Shown here: positions 1-10,501 of the stretch, one piece after another
Layout of the letters: every line of letters starts with the position of its first letter
Numbering within the stretch: the stretch's first letter is position 1
IMG/VR virus record: IMGVR_UViG_2681813225_000023
Location: 1 to 10,501 of that record
Direction: 5' to 3' (one strand)
Length of the DNA: 10,501 bases
Origin: a virus
Lineage: Duplodnaviria; Heunggongvirae; Uroviricota; Caudoviricetes
Position numbers and translations under genes: made by a program
The notes under the pieces: model-generated
Databases searched by the model: none
Seen by the model: the letters and a program-made list of their open reading frames with translations, nothing else
Told to the model about the DNA's origin: nothing

Positions 1-460
1 CCACGCCAGAGACGTGTTGCTGTGGCGACCGTCATCACTTCCGGTCAGCACGTCGTGCGTTTTCCCCTTGTTGTCAGTTACGCGGAGATAATCCCCGGAG
101 AAAGTCGACACACGGCTGTAAGCCATACCGCCTGACGCGGATGCGCCGCCACCAACAGCCCCGCCAATGGCGCTGCCGATACTCCCGACAATCCCCACCA
201 TTGCCTGCTTAAGCAGAATTTCTGTCATCATGGACAGCACGGAACCGGTGAAGCTACGCCAGTTCTGTTCACTGCCGGTCAGCATCGCCGCCATATTCTG
301 TGCAATACCATCAAAGGTCTGCGTGGCTGCACTTTTTACCTGCAACATACAGTCCGTGGCGCTCTCTTCCCACTCACTCCAGCCGGACTTCAGGCCTGCC
401 ATCCAGCTCCCGCGAAGCTGGTCTTCAGCCGCCCAGGTCTTTTTCTACTCTGACATGACG

Positions 461-480
<20 letters not shown>
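1..480 (-). pseudogene. H: Internal fragment of the tail tape-measure gene (lambda gpH-like); 5' two-thirds missing, in-frame TAG at 445-447, continues past window start
   Basis: Minus frame open from 444 to 1 (148 codons) reads KKTWAAEDQLRGSWMAGLKSGWSEWEESATD...AMVGIVGSIGSAIGGAVGGGASASGG..., which I recognise as the C-proximal part of lambda gpH. Codons 480-448 read NPLALNNVMSE in the same frame, then TAG. The frame is entered from a TGA at 481-483, so there is no start codon. Confidence 0.75.
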
Positions 481-3954
<3,474 letters not shown>

Positions 3955-3980
<26 letters not shown>

Positions 3981-4500
3981 TCAGCAACCCCGGTATCAGT
4001 TCATCCAGCGCGGCTGCTTTGTTCATGGCTTTGATGATATCCCGTTTCAGGAAATCAACATGTCGGTTTTCCAGTTCCGGAAAACGCCGCTGCACCGACA
4101 GGGGGATCCCGTCGAGAATACTGGCAATTTCACCTGCGATCCGCGACAGCACGAAAGTACAGAATGCGGTTTCCACCACTTCAGCGGAGTCTCTGGCATT
4201 TTTCAGCTCCTGTGCGTCGGCCTGCGCACGCGTAAGTCGATGGCGTTCGTACTCAATAGTCCCTGGCTGGAGATCTGTCTCGCTGGCCTGCCGCAGTTCT
4301 TCAACCTCCCGGCGCAGCTTTTCGTTCTCAATTTCAGCATCCCTTTCGGCATACCATTTTATGACGGCGGCAGAGTCATAAAGCACCTCATTACCCTTGC
4401 CACCGCCTCGCAGAACGGGCATTCCCTGTTCCTGCCAGTTCTGAATGGTACGGATACTCGAACCGAAAATGTCAGCCAGCTGCTTTTTGTTGACTTCCAT
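3955..4500 (-). CDS. Nu1: Terminase small subunit gpNu1, 181 aa, apparently intact
   Basis: 181-aa ORF MEVNKKQLADIFGSSIRTIQNWQEQGMPVLRGGGKGNEVLYDSAAVIKWYAERDAEIENEKL... matches lambda Nu1 in length and sequence. The N-terminal winged-HTH DNA-binding region is present. ATG at 4500-4498. Confidence 0.95.
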
Positions 4501-4677
4501 TGTTCATTCCACGGACAAAAACAGAGAAAGGAAACGACAGAGGCCAAAAAGCTCGCTTTCAGCACCTGTCGTTTCCTTTCTTTTTAGGGGGTATTTTAAA
4601 TAAAAACATTAAGTTACGACGAAGAAGAACGGAAACACCTTAAACCGGAAAATTTTCATAAATAGCGAAAACCCGCG
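4501..4677 (-). promoter_or_regulatory. cosB-like region (Nu1 R-sites and IHF site) between cosN and the Nu1 start
   Basis: The reverse complement of 4501-4689 reads GGGCGGCGACCTCGCGGGTTTTCGCTATTTATGAAAATTTTCCGG...GAAAGGAAACGACAGGTGCTGAAAGCGAGC...ATG(Nu1), which is the lambda left-end cos sequence with a few substitutions. Individual R1-R3 and I1 sites were not mapped. Confidence 0.65.
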
Positions 4678-4689
4678 AGGTCGCCGCCC
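4678..4689. other. cos: cosN: the 12-nt cohesive-end sequence of lambda
   Basis: AGGTCGCCGCCC on the plus strand is GGGCGGCGACCT on the minus strand. It sits 178 bp upstream of the Nu1 start in the lambda context (CGCGGGTTTTCGC follows). Confidence 0.85.
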
Positions 4690-4888
4690 CGTAACCTGTC
4701 GGATCGCCGGAAAGGACCCGCAAAATGATAATAATTATCATCTACATGTCACAACGTGCATCTACGCCATCAAACCACGTCAAATAATCAATTATGACGC
4801 AGGTATCGTATTAATTGATCCGCATCAACTTAACGTAAAAACAACTTCAGACAATACAAATCAGCGACACTGAATACGGGGCAACCTC

Positions 4889-5083
4889 ATGTCAACGAAG
4901 AACAGAACCCGCAGAACAACAACCCGCAACATCCGCTTTCCTAACCAAATGATTGAACAAATTAACATCGCTCTTGATCAAAAAGGGTCCGGAAATTTCT
5001 CAGCCTGGGTCATTGAAGCCTACCGTCGGAGGCTAACGTCAGAAAAGAGAGCATATACATCAATTAAAAGTGATGAAGAATGA
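4889..5083 (+). CDS. ylcI: Small YlcI-like protein, 64 aa, with a ribbon-helix-helix (Arc/CopG-like) pattern
   Basis: 64-aa ORF MSTKNRTRRTTTRNIRFPNQMIEQINIALDQKGSGNFSAWVIEAYRRRL... has a basic N-terminus, a short strand (RNIRFP), then helix-loop-helix, consistent with RHH DNA binders. Position (just outside cos) and length match the lambda/DLP12 ylcI-type ORF as I recall it. Confidence 0.55.
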   Translation: MSTKNRTRRTTTRNIRFPNQMIEQINIALDQKGSGNFSAWVIEAYRRRLTSEKRAYTSIKSDEE

Positions 5084-5247
5084 ACATCCCGCGTTCTTCC
5101 CTCCGAACAGGACGATATTGTAAATTCACTTAATTACGAGGGCATTGCAGTAATTGAGTTGCAGTTTTACCACTTTCCTGACAGTGACAGACTGCGTGTT
5201 GGCTCTGTCACAGGTTAAGTAGTTTGAATGATTAGCAGTTATGGTGA

Positions 5248-5454
5248 TCAGTCAACCACCAGGGAATAATCCTTCATATTATTATCGTGCTTCACCAACG
5301 CTGCCTCAATTGCCCTGAATGCTTCCAGAGACACCTTATGTTCTATACATGCAATTACAACATCAGGGTAACTCATAGAAATGGTGCTATTAAGCATATT
5401 TTTTACACGAATCAGATCCACGGAGGGATCATCAGCAGATTGTTCTTTATTCAT
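5248..5454 (-). CDS. ybcW: Small YbcW-like protein of unknown function, 68 aa
   Basis: 68-aa [74 protein letters not shown] at 5454 with GGAGCG about 7 nt upstream. Length and location match the DLP12/lambda ybcW-type ORF as I recall it. Confidence 0.55.
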
Positions 5455-5739
5455 TTTGTCGCTCCATGCGCTTGCTCTTCATCTAGCGGTTAAAATATTA
5501 CTTCAAATCTTTCTGTATGAAGATTTGAGCACGTTGGCCTTACATACATCTGTCGGTTGTATTTCCCTCCAGAATGCCAGCAGGACCGCACTTTGTTACG
5601 CAACCAATACTATTAATTGAAAACATTCCTAATATTTGACATAAATCATCAACAAAACACAAAGAGGTCAGACCAGACTGAAACGATAAAAACGATAATG
5701 CAAACTACGCGCCCTCGTATCACATGGAAGGTTTTACCA

Positions 5740-6150
5740 ATGGCTCAGGTTGCCATTTTTAAAGAAATATTCGATCAAGTGCGAAAAGATTTAAACTGTG
5801 AATTGTTTTATTCTGAACTAAAACGTCACAATGTCTCACATTATATTTACTATCTAGCCACAGATAATATTCACATTGTGTTAGAAAACGATAACACTGT
5901 GTTAATAAAAGGACTTAAAAAGGTTGTAAATGTTAAATTCTCAAGAAATACGCATCTTATAGAAACGTCCTATGATAGGTTGAAATCAAGAGAAATCACA
6001 TTTCAGCAATACAGGGAAAATCTTGCTAAAGCAGGAGTTTTCCGATGGGTTACAAATATCCACGAACATAAAAGATATTACTATGCCTTTGATAATTCAT
6101 TACTATTTACTGAGAGCATTCAGAACACTACACAAATCTTTCCACGCTAA
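5740..6150 (+). CDS. ybcV: YbcV-like (DUF1398-type) protein, 136 aa
   Basis: The track ORF 5617..6150 begins at a TTG. The ATG at 5740 has GGAAGG 8 nt upstream and gives 136 aa ([47 protein letters not shown]...), matching the length and position of ybcV-type genes next to bor. Confidence 0.65.
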
Positions 6151-6441
6151 ATCATAACGTCCGGTTTCTTCCGTGTCAGCACCGGGGCGTTGGCATAATG
6201 CAATACGTGTACGCGCTAAACCCTGTGTGCATCGTTATTAATTATTCCCGGACACTCCCGCAGAGGAGTTTCCCTGTCAGGGCTGCGGACATAGTTAATC
6301 CGGGAATACAGTGACGATCCTTCGCATCTGACATACATTAATAAATATTAACAATATGAGATTTCAACTCATTGTTTAGGGTTTGTTTAATTTTCTACAC
6401 ATACGATTCTGCGAACTTTAAAAAGCATCGGGAATAACACC

Positions 6442-6735
6442 ATGAAAAAAATGCTACTCGCTACTGCGCTGGCCCTGCTTATTACAGGATGTGCCCAACA
6501 GACGTTTACTGTTCAAAACAAACCGGCAGCAGTAACACCAAAGGAAACCATCACCCACCATTTCTTCGTCTCTGGAATTGGGCAGAAGAAAACTGTCGAT
6601 GCAGCCAAAATTTGTGGCGGCGCAGAAAATGTTGTTAAAACAGAAACCCAGCAAACATTCGTAAATGGATTGCTCGGTTTTATTACTTTAGGCATTTATA
6701 CTCCGCTGGAAGCGCGTGTGTATTGCTCACAATAA
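6442..6735 (+). CDS. bor: Bor outer-membrane lipoprotein (serum-resistance moron), 97 aa
   Basis: MKKMLLATALALLITGCAQQTFTVQNKPAAV... has a signal peptide with lipobox LITGC and is near-identical to recalled lambda Bor (97 aa). It is convergent with Rz, as in lambda. Confidence 0.93.
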   Translation: MKKMLLATALALLITGCAQQTFTVQNKPAAVTPKETITHHFFVSGIGQKKTVDAAKICGGAENVVKTETQQTFVNGLLGFITLGIYTPLEARVYCSQ

Positions 6736-6743
6736 TTGTATGA

Positions 6744-6765
6744 GTTGCCCATCGATATGGGCAAC
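6744..6765. terminator. Hairpin between convergent bor and Rz; candidate bidirectional terminator
   Basis: GTTGCCCAT-cgat-ATGGGCAAC is a perfect 9-bp stem with a 4-nt loop. It starts 9 nt after the bor stop and ends 1 nt before the Rz-frame stop (6767-6769). The flanking U-tracts are weak. Confidence 0.45.
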
Positions 6766-6766
6766 T

Positions 6767-7227
6767 CTATCTGCACTGCTCATTAATATACTTCTGGGTT
6801 CCTTCCAGTTGTTTTTGCATAGTGATCAGCCTCTCTCTGAGGGTGAAATAATCCCGTTCAGCGGTGTCTGCCAGTCGGGGGGAGGCTGCATTATCCACGC
6901 CGGAGGCGGTGGTGGCTTCACGCACTGACTGACAGACTGCTTTGATGTGCACCGACGACGACCAGCGGCAACATCATCACGCAGAGCATCATTTTCAGCT
7001 TTAGCATCAGCTAACTCCTTCGTGTATTTTGCATCGAGCGCAGCAACATCACGCTGACGCATCTGCATGTCAGTAATTGCCGCGTTCGCCAGCTTCAGTT
7101 CTCTGGCATTTTTGTCGCGCTGGGCCTTGTAGGTAATGGCGTTATCACGGTAATGATTAACAGCCCAAGACAGGCAGACGATGATGCAAATAACCAGAGC
7201 GGAGATAATCGCGGTTACTCTGCTCAT
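6767..7227 (-). pseudogene. Rz: Rz (inner-membrane spanin) gene with a 1-nt deletion frameshift near 6951
   Basis: From ATG 7227 the frame reads [45 protein letters not shown]...DDVAAGRRR (lambda Rz residues 1-92), then shifts into the Rz1 frame ([21 protein letters not shown]...). The true Rz C-terminus ([60 protein letters not shown]) is in another frame at 6950-6767. Confidence 0.85.
6826..7007 (-). pseudogene. Rz1: Rz1 (outer-membrane lipoprotein spanin) embedded in Rz, disrupted by the same 1-nt deletion
   Basis: ATG at 7007 follows AAGGAG and reads [19 protein letters not shown], then shifts at the lipobox Cys codon to [10 protein letters not shown]. The mature Rz1 sequence [41 protein letters not shown] continues in the Rz N-terminal frame down to 6826. 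Confidence 0.75.
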
Positions 7228-7700
7228 ACCTCAATCTCTCTGACCGTTCCGCCAGCTTCTTTGAATTTTGCAATCAGGCTGTCAGCCTTATGCTCGAACT
7301 GACCATAACCAGCGCCCGGCAGTGAAGCCCAGATATTGCTGCAACGGTCAATTGCCTGACGAATATCACCGCGATCAATCATCGGTAAAGCGCCACGTTC
7401 TTTAATCTGCTGCAATGCCACTGCGTCCTGGCTTTTGGGGGAGAAGTCTTTCAGGCCAAGCTGCTTACGGTAAGCATCCCACCAGCGTGAAAGAAGCTGA
7501 TAACGTCCGGCTGCTGTTGATTTGAGTTTGGGGTTTAGCGTGACAAGTTTGCGAGGGTGATCGGAGTAATCAGTAAATAGCTCTCCGCCTACAATGACGT
7601 CATAACCATGATTTCTGGTTTTCTGCCGTCCGTTATCCGTTCCTTCTGACCATGCCACCATATCGAGGAAAGCTTTACGCTGAGGATTAAGATTTTGCAT
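7224..7700 (-). CDS. R: Endolysin R (lambda-type lytic transglycosylase), 158 aa
   Basis: [61 protein letters not shown]... has the same length as lambda R and is near-identical except for the first ~15 residues. The catalytic Glu in WSEG is present. Stop overlaps the Rz ATG. Confidence 0.93.
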
Positions 7701-7992
7701 TTTTCACCCCTGTCAGTCGTTCCCAGAAGTATGTCAGTGCAACCGAACCCATCGCACCACTAATCCCCGCTGTCGCGAGAATCATGTAAATACTGAATCC
7801 ACTTTCGATACTGATCAGGCCACCAATAACACCGGTGAATCCCGACACCACTATCTGAGCCAAAGCATTTATCCAGCTCCACGTTGCTTTACTCTGCTTC
7901 ACATCTATCAGGTAGCGGACCAGACCGCCCCAACCTGCGATGATCAGCAAAACGAGCCAGAACGCTCCGGCAAGGCTCTCTTTTTCGTGCAT
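7687..7992 (-). CDS. S: Holin (class I, three predicted TMDs), non-lambda family; an in-frame TTG at 8004 lies 4 codons upstream
   Basis: The ORF lies immediately upstream of and overlaps R. The product MHEKESLAGAFWLVLLIIAGWGGLV...WINALAQIVVSGFTGVIGGLI...GFSIYMILATAGISGAMGSVAL...[11 protein letters not shown] has three hydrophobic segments and a charged C-terminal tail. It is unrelated to recalled lambda S. Confidence 0.75.
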   Translation of the reverse strand: MHEKESLAGAFWLVLLIIAGWGGLVRYLIDVKQSKATWSWINALAQIVVSGFTGVIGGLISIESGFSIYMILATAGISGAMGSVALTYFWERLTGVKNAKS

Positions 7993-8106
7993 ATGAATAG
8001 CCAATGTTTCGCCGCCGACAAAAGGCCGGGACGTTAAATGTCAGAAATCAGGCTCACGGGGTAATTTAACGACAAAGCACGGAGTTGATGCTCCCCGCAA
8101 GCCTGG

Positions 8107-8132
8107 AATAAAAAAGCCAGCATGTAGCTGGC
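8107..8132 (-). terminator. tR'-like intrinsic terminator between the Q-like gene and the holin
   Basis: On the minus strand GCCAGC-tacat-GCTGGC (6-bp stem) is followed directly by TTTTTTATT. It lies about 115 nt upstream of the holin start, matching the lambda pR'-tR' (6S RNA) layout. Confidence 0.6.
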
Positions 8133-8254
8133 AACAGAGGGTTAAGCAATATCAACTCAACAGCTGAAGACACCCTGGCTGGGGTACGTTGGAAGGATAC
8201 TCACCGCCCAGAAACAGAAAAGCCCAAGGCTTTAAACCTCGGGCTTGAATTTGG

Positions 8255-8283
8255 ATTACGGCCAGTGCGTACAACATTGGCAA
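8255..8283 (-). promoter_or_regulatory. Candidate late promoter (pR'-like) and probable Q-utilisation region
   Basis: On the minus strand TTGCCA (8283-8278), a 17-nt spacer, then CGTAAT (8260-8255). It sits about 30 bp downstream of the Q-like stop and about 120 nt upstream of the terminator. The -10 match is weak. Confidence 0.3.
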
Positions 8284-8313
8284 AATATCAGATTTACATA
8301 AAACATATGATTT

Positions 8314-8916
8314 TTAATCCAGTTTTGCAATATCTTGCTGTGAAAATGTGGTCTTTTGTTTTGAACGTGTTTTCGTTAAAAGCAATAAAGCTTGGCTATC
8401 AAGCTGTAGAAAAATGTGCTTCATTGCAACCCAGCGTTCAGTAAATGTCTCAGACCAGTTTTTTGATGTCACTCCCACCAGTGATGCCAACTCCTGGTAT
8501 TCATAGGTCTTACGCCCTGCCAGCTCGTTCTTCACATCCTGTGCCGCCAGCCAGATCAACTTCTTCAAACGTTCCAGTGTCTTACCTGCAATTTTCCTGG
8601 TACCCAACAGAGTCTTAAACTCGCTCCATGCCCACTGCGTTATGGTGACCTGATGTTCCCAGCGAACACTTTCGCTGTAACTCCACAGCAACCACGCTTT
8701 CTGATGTTCTTCGAGAGACAGAACCGCGCGGCGCCATGATGATGTTGAGAACTCGATCGGACTGACCAGGGCAATGGATGAGCCTTTCGCCCGTGACTGC
8801 TTACCGGGTATCGGCGGATTATCCAGCGTTATTAACCTGCCGGTCACTTCATCCAGAATGCGCGGTTTCTTTCGTTTGTATGTATGCTTGCCGACATGGG
8901 ACTTGTTCAATGACAC
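8314..8916 (-). CDS. Hypothetical protein in the position of late antiterminator Q; family not recognised; possibly 5'-truncated
   Basis: 200-codon ORF (VSLNKSHVGKHTYKRKKPRILDEVTGRL...YEYQELASLVGVTSKNWSETFTERWVAMKHIF...) directly upstream of the promoter-terminator-holin arrangement. It begins at GTG with no ATG and no clear SD; the frame is open upstream only to 8955. Confidence 0.35.
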   Translation of the reverse strand: MSLNKSHVGKHTYKRKKPRILDEVTGRLITLDNPPIPGKQSRAKGSSIALVSPIEFSTSSWRRAVLSLEEHQKAWLLWSYSESVRWEHQVTITQWAWSEFKTLLGTRKIAGKTLERLKKLIWLAAQDVKNELAGRKTYEYQELASLVGVTSKNWSETFTERWVAMKHIFLQLDSQALLLLTKTRSKQKTTFSQQDIAKLD

Positions 8917-9167
8917 CTCAGCAAGAAAACGCCCTTCGCAGTATTGCCCGTCAGGCTAATTATGAAATCAAAAAAGCCAGACAGCAGTTTCCGGATAAAA
9001 ACGTCGATGACATTTGCCGTAGCGTACTGAAGAAGCACCGCGAAACGGTAACGCTGATGGGATTCACACCGACTCATTTAAGCCTGGCGATATATCGGTC
9101 ACAAACTCCCTCAGCAGCTAAGAGGAGGACAAATGTCTCGACTAATCACTTTACAGGACTGGGCTAA
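8910..9167 (+). CDS. Small hypothetical protein upstream of xis, 85 aa from ATG 8910
   Basis: Track ORF 8778..9167; its first 44 codons run antisense through the Q-like 5' end, so the ATG at 8910 (MTPQQENALRSIARQANYEIKKARQQFPDKNVDDICRSVLKKHRETVTLMGF...) is more plausible. The 3' end overlaps the xis start by 35 nt. No family recognised. Confidence 0.35.
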   Translation: MTPQQENALRSIARQANYEIKKARQQFPDKNVDDICRSVLKKHRETVTLMGFTPTHLSLAIYRSQTPSAAKRRTNVSTNHFTGLG

Positions 9168-9369
9168 AGAAGAATTTGGGGACTTAGCACCAAGTGAGCG
9201 AGTTCTGAAAAAATACGCGCAAGGGAAAATGATGGCCCCACCCGCTATAAAAGTTGGTCGCTACTGGATGATTGACCGAAATTCCCGTTTTGTAGGAACG
9301 CTTGCAGAACCGCAACTCCCAATCAACGCAAACCCAAAACTCCAACGGATAATCGCTGATGGCTGCTAG
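9133..9369 (+). CDS. xis: Excisionase (lambda Xis-like), 78 aa
   Basis: MSRLITLQDWAKEEFGDLAPSERVLKKYAQGKMMAPPAIKVGRYWMIDRNSRFVG... shares the LTLQEW...PPP-K-GR motif pattern of lambda Xis. Strong SD AGAGGAGG 5 nt upstream. It overlaps the int start by 11 nt, as in the lambda xis-int arrangement. Confidence 0.8.
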   Translation: MSRLITLQDWAKEEFGDLAPSERVLKKYAQGKMMAPPAIKVGRYWMIDRNSRFVGTLAEPQLPINANPKLQRIIADGC

Positions 9370-10501
9370 ACCCCGATCTCACAAAATCTCTATACCCAAT
9401 TTATATTGCAAATTAGATAAGCGAACCGGAAAGGTATATTGGCAATACAAACATCCACTATCCGGTCGTTTTCATAGTTTAGGAACTGATGAGAATGAAG
9501 CAAAACAGGTTGCTACTGAAGCAAATACCATTATTGCTGAACAACGTACCCGACAAATATTAAGCGTCAATGAGCGTCTGGAAAGAATGAAAGGCAGGCG
9601 CTCAGACATTACGGTGACAGAATGGCTTGATAAATATATTTCTATCCAGGAGGACAGGCTGCAACATAATGAACTAAGACCCAACTCCTATTGGCAAAAA
9701 GGCAAACCCATTCGTCTCTTCCGTGAGCATTGTGGAATGCAACACCTCAAGGATATTACCGCACTTGATATTGCCGAAATAATTGATGCTGTAAAGGCTG
9801 AAGGTCATAACAGGATGGCGCAAGTCGTGAGAATGGTGTTGATCGACGTCTTCAAAGAAGCACAACACGCAGGACATGTTCCGCCAGGATTTAACCCAGC
9901 GCAGGCAACAAAACAACCGCGAAATCGAGTAAACCGCCAAAGATTATCACTGTCCGAATGGCAGGCAATATTTGACAGCGTAAGTAGACGGCAGCCCTAT
10001 TTAAAATGCGGGATGCTACTTGCTCTTGTCACTGGACAACGTTTAGGCGATATCTGCAATTTGAAATTCTCTGATATCTGGGACGACATGTTGCACATTA
10101 CTCAGGAAAAAACCGGTTCAAAACTTGCTATTCCGCTTAACCTGAAATGCGATGCTCTGAATATTACCCTTCGTGAAGTTATATCTCAGTGCAGGGATGC
10201 TGTTGTTAGTAAATATCTGGTCCATTACCGTCACACTACCTCTCAAGCAAACAGAGGAGACCAGGTGTCTGCAAATACTCTTACAACGGCTTTTAAAAAG
10301 GCCAGGGAAAAATGTGGCATAAAATGGGAGCAAGGAACTGCGCCCACATTTCATGAGCAGCGATCTCTGTCAGAACGGTTATATCGGGAACAGGGTCTGG
10401 ATACGCAAAAGTTGTTAGGTCATAAATCCAGAAAAATGACCGACCGATACAATGATGATCGTGGTAAAGACTGGATTATCGTAGATATCAAAACAGCATA
10501 G
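9359..10501 (+). CDS. int: Tyrosine integrase (lambda Int family), 380 aa, apparently intact
   Basis: MAARPRSHKISIPNLY...ALVTGQRLGDICNLKFSDI...TFHEQRSLSERLY...LLGHKSRKMTDRYNDDRGKDWIIVDIKTA aligns by eye with lambda Int (R, K, HxxR, H and Y catalytic positions present). The stop codon is the last three bases of the window. Confidence 0.93.
   Translation: MAARPRSHKISIPNLYCKLDKRTGKVYWQYKHPLSGRFHSLGTDENEAKQVATEANTIIAEQRTRQILSVNERLERMKGRRSDITVTEWLDKYISIQEDRLQHNELRPNSYWQKGKPIRLFREHCGMQHLKDITALDIAEIIDAVKAEGHNRMAQVVRMVLIDVFKEAQHAGHVPPGFNPAQATKQPRNRVNRQRLSLSEWQAIFDSVSRRQPYLKCGMLLALVTGQRLGDICNLKFSDIWDDMLHITQEKTGSKLAIPLNLKCDALNITLREVISQCRDAVVSKYLVHYRHTTSQANRGDQVSANTLTTAFKKAREKCGIKWEQGTAPTFHEQRSLSERLYREQGLDTQKLLGHKSRKMTDRYNDDRGKDWIIVDIKTA

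Follow-up and report, generated by a model that had tools for sequence, protein, structure and literature searches.

A 5'-truncated phage 82-type antiterminator gene beside its late promoter region in a decayed lambdoid prophage at icd of Escherichia coli

A stretch of 10,501 nucleotides of viral DNA (IMG/VR record IMGVR_UViG_2681813225_000023, positions 1 to 10,501; hereafter the window, meaning this whole stretch) carries the remains of a late antiterminator gene Q. In our reading, to which we assign a probability of roughly 0.88, the window belongs to a decayed prophage at icd whose 82-type Q was broken by one deletion and persists as a pseudogene beside its surviving target of late promoter pR', pause element and terminator. 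The deletion at 8883/8884 left Q residues 41-229, to which 11 unrelated codons starting with GTG happen to be joined. The cis-acting target of Q is still present in sequence on the minus strand and is predicted to be active; it comprises pR' with a start at 8295, a pause at +25 (8271) and terminators at 8246-8220 and 8132-8110, with the holin, lysozyme, Rz, bor and terminase genes beyond them. A sigma-70-dependent pause element would hold RNA polymerase at +25 (8271). Without Q, transcription from pR' would stop at the first terminator, giving an IsrJ-like leader of about 80 nt and leaving the lysis and terminase genes silent, and read-through would be expected only with a cognate 82-type Q supplied by an incoming phage. 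The Q82 family, its promoter logic and prophage decay of this kind are already known, and public annotation marks the gene as a pseudogene.

Results

The minus strand of the window contains an uninterrupted open reading frame (ORF) of 200 codons at 8314-8916, which starts with GTG, has no ATG start and has the holin, lysozyme and Rz genes immediately downstream. A sequence-only reading of the same DNA had correctly described a 200-aa protein at the Q position lacking a canonical start, and had left it as a divergent Q, a truncated Q or some other regulator. The search of Pfam antitermination families which that reading had proposed gave a match to PF06323 with an E value of 8e-80 and 268 bits (cut-off 25), covering profile positions 34-217 of 220. 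PF03589, PF06530 and any non-antiterminator family gave no match to the ORF at E<=0.01. PF06530 corresponds to Q21, PF03589 to lambda Q and PF06323 to Q82 (PMC7171158). The ORF also matches phrog_304, 'anti-termination protein Q-like', at E 6.8e-87. It is a Q and it is truncated, as the PF06323 match and the survival of residues 41-229 indicate, and the third possibility, another regulator, falls away since no such family was matched.

From residue 41 onward, amino acid identity is 91% to phage 82 Q (X92588, REGQ_BP82) and 92% to the Q protein of PhiR47_2, with 540 and 544 of 571 bases matching in the DNA, respectively. In a large protein collection nearly all listed family members have 229 aa, among them the intact protein P0006, which is 100% identical across the shared part, i.e. 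95% of the query. Intact alleles cover PF06323 positions 1-217, the remnant only 34-217. Full-length members of the Q82 family have about 229 aa including profile positions 1-37, and from the remnant residues 1-40 are absent; at 27 of these 40 missing N-terminal positions conservation is at least 90% (alignment A5). The preserved part of the gene, codons 41-229 and the stop codon TAA (8316-8314), occupies 8314-8884 on the minus strand according to PF06323, phrog_304 and the Q alignments. The remaining stretch of about 11 codons at 8885-8916, with GTG at 8916 and TTG at 8910, is a fortuitous 5' extension of the ORF and runs antisense to phage-21-like intergenic DNA. Its residues MSLNKSHVGKH align with no Q, and the underlying DNA is identical to phage 21. 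RefSeq lists 8314-8886 as a pseudogene, 'bacteriophage antitermination protein Q, incomplete, missing N-terminus'. Judged by homology the remnant is a descendant of the Q82 family and an incomplete member of it.

Structural roles of the two parts of 82Q have been proposed: from an AlphaFold model, the N-terminal segment as a ring in the RNA exit channel, and the C-terminal part as a DNA-binding helix-turn-helix (PMC9371919). Our AlphaFold2 model of intact P0006 has a mean pLDDT of 63.6; residues 1-86 stay below 60, which makes the model unusable for the role of residues 1-40, and the C-terminal part consists of moderately well-modelled helices. A Foldseek comparison of this model with the PDB gave no match at E<=0.001, the top entry, antiterminator AlpA (7xyb_G), having an E value of 0.48 that is suggestive only. 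Searching PDB sequences for a solved Q82 relative returned a chance match alone (E 0.033).

Positions 7600-9400 of the window are 100% identical in five complete E. coli chromosomes, e.g. that of strain 2014C-3011, and in such matching chromosomes (again e.g. strain 2014C-3011) the element adjoins icd. On the minus strand, 3' of the Q ORF, follow the holin (PF16083), lysozyme, Rz, Nu1, terminase large subunit, W and portal genes; to the right of the Q ORF the plus strand carries an orf61-like gene, the excisionase gene and a lambda-type integrase gene. The holin gene (7687-8004, minus strand; PF16083 at 8e-22, phrog_785) is the first gene of the late operon and is annotated as intact. RefSeq annotates the portal and tape-measure genes of the matching chromosomes as truncated pseudogenes. 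Because the element adjoins icd and the portal, tape-measure and Q genes are annotated as broken, the window is best described as a decayed lambdoid prophage remnant at the icd attachment site of E. coli. The portal gene (917-1855 of the window, minus strand, and 4281-6255 of locus L001) has an internal stop, is truncated and abuts the truncated tape-measure gene, and the head genes and most tail genes have therefore gone via a further deletion. Tail-fibre genes are still present in the prophage remnant. A tRNA scan across the window found none. In strain CFSAN004176, which carries the Q junction described below, the integrase gene is also interrupted by an IS600 insertion (L002, 5496-7905). 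As a name for the remnant, Sp7/CP-933C of O157 Sakai was considered and dropped; Sp7 has a P4-like integrase (PMC2669165).

The point at which Q was broken can be placed to the base. In ungapped, base by base comparison, identity to the Q genes of phage 82 and PhiR47_2 ends at 8884 and identity to phage 21 begins at 8883, the two blocks overlapping by TA. Positions 8883-8884 are thus a deletion junction with 2-bp microhomology, having the Q gene on its left and phage-21-like DNA on its right. The right breakpoint precedes the intact ATG (8910) of the orf61-like gene, a member of the distal pL operon, by 27 bp. Comparison with phage 21 and PhiR47_2 identifies the lost block as the recombination, immunity, replication and nin genes; missing too are Q codons 1-40, the native ribosome-binding site and the whole early region. 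By this comparison, a single illegitimate-recombination deletion is shown to have taken out all DNA between the distal pL operon and Q codon 40. Among 5,426 complete E. coli genomes, 8, of cattle and human origin, contain a 101-bp sequence across the junction. Since it is shared to the base by eight genomes, the junction is no assembly artefact, and its distribution points to a single recent event within one lineage.

A second deletion, of 736 bp, has its junction at 9089-9091 with 3-bp microhomology (GAT) and is present in the window and in five of the eight junction-bearing genomes. Gone with it are a TraR/DksA zinc-finger gene, a DUF4222 gene and the end of the orf61-like gene, whose remainder is now joined to DNA upstream of xis in an ORF at 8910-9167 (plus strand). 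In RefSeq this fusion ORF is named 'cell division protein ZapA', apparently a misannotation. The E. coli O157:H7 strains PV15-279 and F3113 carry the same prophage at icd, with the same integrase, excisionase and Q-lysis-terminase block, and in them too the whole early region has been lost. In contrast to the window, an independent deletion has brought truncated ylcG and DUF4222 genes together in these strains, and their Q is intact with 229 aa. In PV15-279 this ylcG-DUF4222 deletion lies at 7371-7597 of locus L011. Two independent deletions mean that the early region has been lost at least twice, each time with int-xis and the Q-lysis-terminase block kept.

Downstream of the break, the region targeted by Q in phage 82 has survived. 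We aligned seven late regions from phages of E. coli, Salmonella, Klebsiella and Enterobacter, and the promoter block TTGCAAAACTGGATTAAAA..CATATATTT.ATGTAAATCTGATAT is conserved across these seven 82-type regions. In the window, all on the minus strand, the -35 element TTGCAA of pR', conserved in the seven, lies at 8325-8330 within the last Q codons; it is followed by the 17-bp spacer AACTGGATTAAAAATCA at 8308-8324 and the -10 element TATGTT at 8302-8307 (alignment A3), where all relatives have TATATT or TATACT. The spacer contains an imperfect dyad, TGGATT..AAATCA, as well as the Q stop codon. The Q-binding element of 82 is located between -35 and -10 (PMC4914094), and in Gifsy-1 the promoter block and the spacer are conserved though they lie outside any Q coding sequence; the spacer at 8308-8324 is our candidate for the Q-binding element.

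Transcription from 82 pR' starts at AAA; an extended -10 motif forms part of the -10-like pause element, which ends at +14 and is followed by GCC at +15-17 and an AT-rich stretch (PMC5001585). A one-base insertion at +18 moves G to the pause site, hence wild-type +24 is G; the next base, +25, is U, and +26 is not G (PMC5001585). The minus-strand sequence AAATCTGATATTTTGCCAATGTTGTA from 8295 fits every one of these published features. The mapping uses this verbal description of 82 pR' (PMC5001585) together with conservation. It places the presumed transcription start at 8295, where AAA begins 7 nt beyond the -10 element, and the sigma-70-dependent pause module at 8270-8290, with the extended -10-like motif TGATATTTT at 8290-8282, GCC at 8281-8279, an AT-rich stretch, and the pause at +25/+26 (8271/8270). 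TGATAT of the pause module is conserved in all 82-type leaders.

In the sister lineage CFSAN004176 a consensus scan called TTGCAA-17-TATATT in exactly the same place. The sole difference between the window and CFSAN004176 over 8005-8345 is G8304 (minus strand), a derived substitution that turns TATATT into TATGTT and by which the -10 of pR' falls below the scan threshold in the window. The change may weaken pR', and the leader RNA would then perhaps be poorly made. On the plus strand, G8304 also takes the final T from a promoter-like site, TTGGCA-16-TAAAAT, which was called in CFSAN004176 and points antisense into Q.

Three terminator-like structures follow on the minus strand. The first intrinsic terminator (8210-8246), supported by scan, fold, conservation and the end of the isrJ model, has a 12-bp stem AAGCCCGAGGTT/AGCCTTGGGCTT at 8246-8220 (+50 to +76), then TTCTGTTTCT; the U-run after the hairpin is UUCUGUUUCU, and the predicted leader has about 80 nt. 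A hairpin with a U-run is found at this position in all seven aligned 82-type leaders, with differing stem sequences. The second intrinsic terminator (8107-8132; scan and fold) has the hairpin GCCAGC-TACAT-GCTGGC with a 6-bp stem and a 5-nt loop at 8132-8116 and T6 to 8110, about +164 to +186. At 8078-8099 a third, weak terminator-like hairpin was called by consensus scan alone. In 7993-8359 there are more terminator-like sites than in shuffled sequence (4, against 0.5 +/- 0.6), and the minimum-free-energy fold computed for +1 to +196 contains the first two hairpins (z = -3.3). From these features promoter activity, pausing and termination are predicted.

The sequence-only reading had recognised the architecture of a late antiterminator module here, and this stands, with corrected coordinates. 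The terminator it named, at 8107-8132 on the same strand, with its hairpin and TTTTTT, was confirmed, but the stronger, conserved terminator at 8246-8220 precedes it, which makes it number two of two or three. The promoter sits some 45 bp further upstream than proposed and partly inside Q. A promoter at 8255-8283, as claimed, was not called by the scan, and its -10, CGTAAT, is without the A that is essential at position 2. In the 82-type late transcript this segment corresponds by homology to +13 to +41, the supposed -35 TTGCCA (8283-8278) being +13 to +18. A transcribed '-35-like' sequence had been taken as the promoter and the second terminator as tR', which misled this first interpretation.

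The predicted leader resembles a small RNA of Salmonella. At 8298-8219 it matches RF01393 (isrJ) over the full model length with E 0.003 and 27.8 bits, against a gathering score of 37, so that 8219-8298 on the minus strand is listed as a sub-threshold, IsrJ-like leader RNA. The model begins at 8298, 3 nt upstream of the presumed start, and its terminator end is the first terminator. Counterparts at the equivalent place score 63-100 bits in Klebsiella KO-TP1, Enterobacter ENT1 and Gifsy-1; these isrJ matches lie at 1834-1908 of L007 (Gifsy-1), 933-1009 of L009 and 933-1006 of L010. An Rfam match to Hrs12 in the window, with 19.5 bits against 70, is noise and was discarded. The short IsrJ RNA ends at a Rho-independent terminator (PMC4825925). 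The window RNA and IsrJ (RF01393, Salmonella Gifsy-1) are alike in the 5' end UGUAAAUCUGAUAU, in the position and type of the terminator hairpin, and in lying downstream of a TTGCAA-N17-TATATT promoter of a Q82-family module; they differ in the central part, and the window RNA scores 27.8 bits against the family threshold of 37. More generally, isrJ and Q82-type leaders share the AAATCTGATAT start, the pause element and the terminator, and in Klebsiella and Enterobacter phages isrJ sits directly after Q82-family genes. In Gifsy-1, unlike the window, Q and isrJ are separated by IsrK and the antirepressor-like gene anrP (PMC4825925). Between Q and anrP of Gifsy-1 (L007, 985-1183), Rfam finds isrK, a C4 antisense RNA and a1/b1 targets. 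This isrK/C4 set amounts to an antirepressor control module of the P1/P7 type inside a lambdoid late region. The Rfam family isrJ is described as an island-encoded, Hfq-binding sRNA of Salmonella, and its place is that of the promoter-proximal leader in Q82-type late operons; in the literature searched we found no statement of this link.

Short terminated pR' RNAs of phage 82 and other lambdoid phages have long been known, and StxS is a regulatory sRNA (PMC7547250). One could suppose that the remnant is kept for its pR' leader, a constitutive, IsrJ-like and possibly Hfq-binding sRNA that regulates host genes in the manner of StxS in Stx phages. In a remnant without functional Q, promoter, pause element and terminator do survive, the leader matches isrJ over its full length, if below threshold, isrJ members occupy exactly this position after Q82-type genes in other genera, and PR' leaders can turn into regulatory sRNAs (PMC7547250). 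Even so, we hold this explanation to be unlikely: the score of 27.8 bits is below the Rfam gathering score, the middle of the leader RNA is unrelated to IsrJ, and the lone substitution relative to the sister lineage lowers the match of the -10 to consensus, which is unlike selection for expression. Moreover, the deletion is recent, so the survival of neighbouring DNA needs no selection. Equally doubtful to us is the wider proposition that the surviving pR' fires and yields a stable IsrJ-family RNA of about 80 nt acting on host mRNAs, and that IsrJ in general is nothing but the leader, with its pause, of Q82-type late operons, which would explain its retention in remnants that have no Q.

For the Q remnant itself, a scan found no promoter-like site on the minus strand upstream of 8916, and a terminator-like hairpin was called at 8994-8977, upstream of the Q ORF on the same strand. 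Some translation of the truncated protein is possible if antisense transcription occurs, and nothing suggests such a transcript. The 100% identity to intact alleles is a mark of a recent deletion, in our view, and says nothing for selection on the gene. Because there is no upstream promoter-like site, the native ribosome-binding site is gone and the identity reflects the youth of the deletion, we treat the Q remnant as a pseudogene and infer that it makes no active antiterminator.

Conceivably, a product of 200 aa (198 aa from TTG 8910) does exist and functions as a Q short of its N-terminus, whether as an antiterminator or by binding the Q-binding element without modifying RNA polymerase and thereby interfering with incoming 82-type phages. 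The frame is intact, with 189 residues identical to intact alleles; the C-terminal part with its moderately well-modelled helices, the proposed DNA-binding helix-turn-helix (PMC9371919), is kept; an SD-like GAGG happens to lie 5 nt before TTG 8910; and older annotations list a protein (P0001, P0003). We nevertheless consider such a function quite improbable. The minus strand lacks an upstream promoter-like site, and the terminator-like site at 8994-8977 is in the way. The 40 lost residues are among the most conserved of the family and belong to the proposed antitermination ring (PMC9371919). Start codon and upstream DNA, including the GAGG, are a product of chance, antisense to the leader of another gene. 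Identity to intact alleles reflects recency alone and not selection, and the junction occurs in just 8 of 5,426 genomes. That the junction is an assembly artefact, or the ORF a different, non-Q regulator, has nothing in its favour except the missing canonical start and is already refuted by the base-exact junction in eight independently assembled complete genomes and by PF06323 as sole family match (E 8e-80).

To look for a second Q that might stand in for the remnant, complete E. coli genomes (chromosome records) were searched by megablast with a 1,617-bp tag from the int side and with the same tag extended by the 120 nt of Q codons 1-40. Adding codons 1-40 left the number of matches unchanged in all eight junction-bearing genomes; each of the four control genomes listed just below them gained one match, and the whole collection gained 798 places. 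The megablast search, which divergent Q82 alleles would escape, thus revealed no further 5' end of a close 82-type Q in the eight junction-bearing chromosomes. The resident Q presumably cannot activate late transcription, because 40 conserved N-terminal residues, the ribosome-binding site and every upstream promoter are missing. On this result pR', if still active, would most likely make only the short leader, and the late genes probably stay silent until an infecting phage brings in an 82-type Q. Complementation between prophages of this general kind has been documented in O157 (PMC2669165).

Discussion

Two of the closest known counterparts of the remnant are phages. With phage 82 it shares 91% amino acid identity over Q residues 41-229 and the position of Q directly upstream of the lysis genes, as well as the pR' features (PMC5001585), from the AAA start and the extended -10-like pause element to GCC at +15-17 and the predicted pause at +25, with an intrinsic terminator ending the leader. 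Unlike phage 82, the window is without the first 40 codons of Q, the ribosome-binding site, ylcG, rusA, the nin genes and the early region; its -10 has a G unseen in relatives, and the gene is not expected to work. The intact lambdoid Escherichia phage PhiR47_2 (PV340567) has 96.6% DNA identity to the window over 7630-8884 and 98.2% over 8005-8345, and the same gene order of Q, holin, lysozyme, Rz and bor. It differs in its full Q of 229 aa, preceded by ylcG, rusA and nin genes, and in its -10, TATATT. Lambda 6S RNA and StxS, pR' RNAs ended at tR' in lysogens, resemble the predicted leader in arising from a constitutive late promoter at a terminator that is overridden only by Q (PMC7547250), whereas they belong to another Q family and are unrelated in sequence, and for the window RNA a function is only putative.

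The finding matters little beyond correct annotation. As we read it, the holin, lysozyme, Rz, Bor and terminase genes of the resident prophage cannot be turned on by the prophage itself, which alone poses no risk of lysis; if a phage carrying an 82-type Q infects, the remnant could still react to it. The point with a broader bearing is the coincidence of the Rfam isrJ family with the leader of Q82-type late operons.
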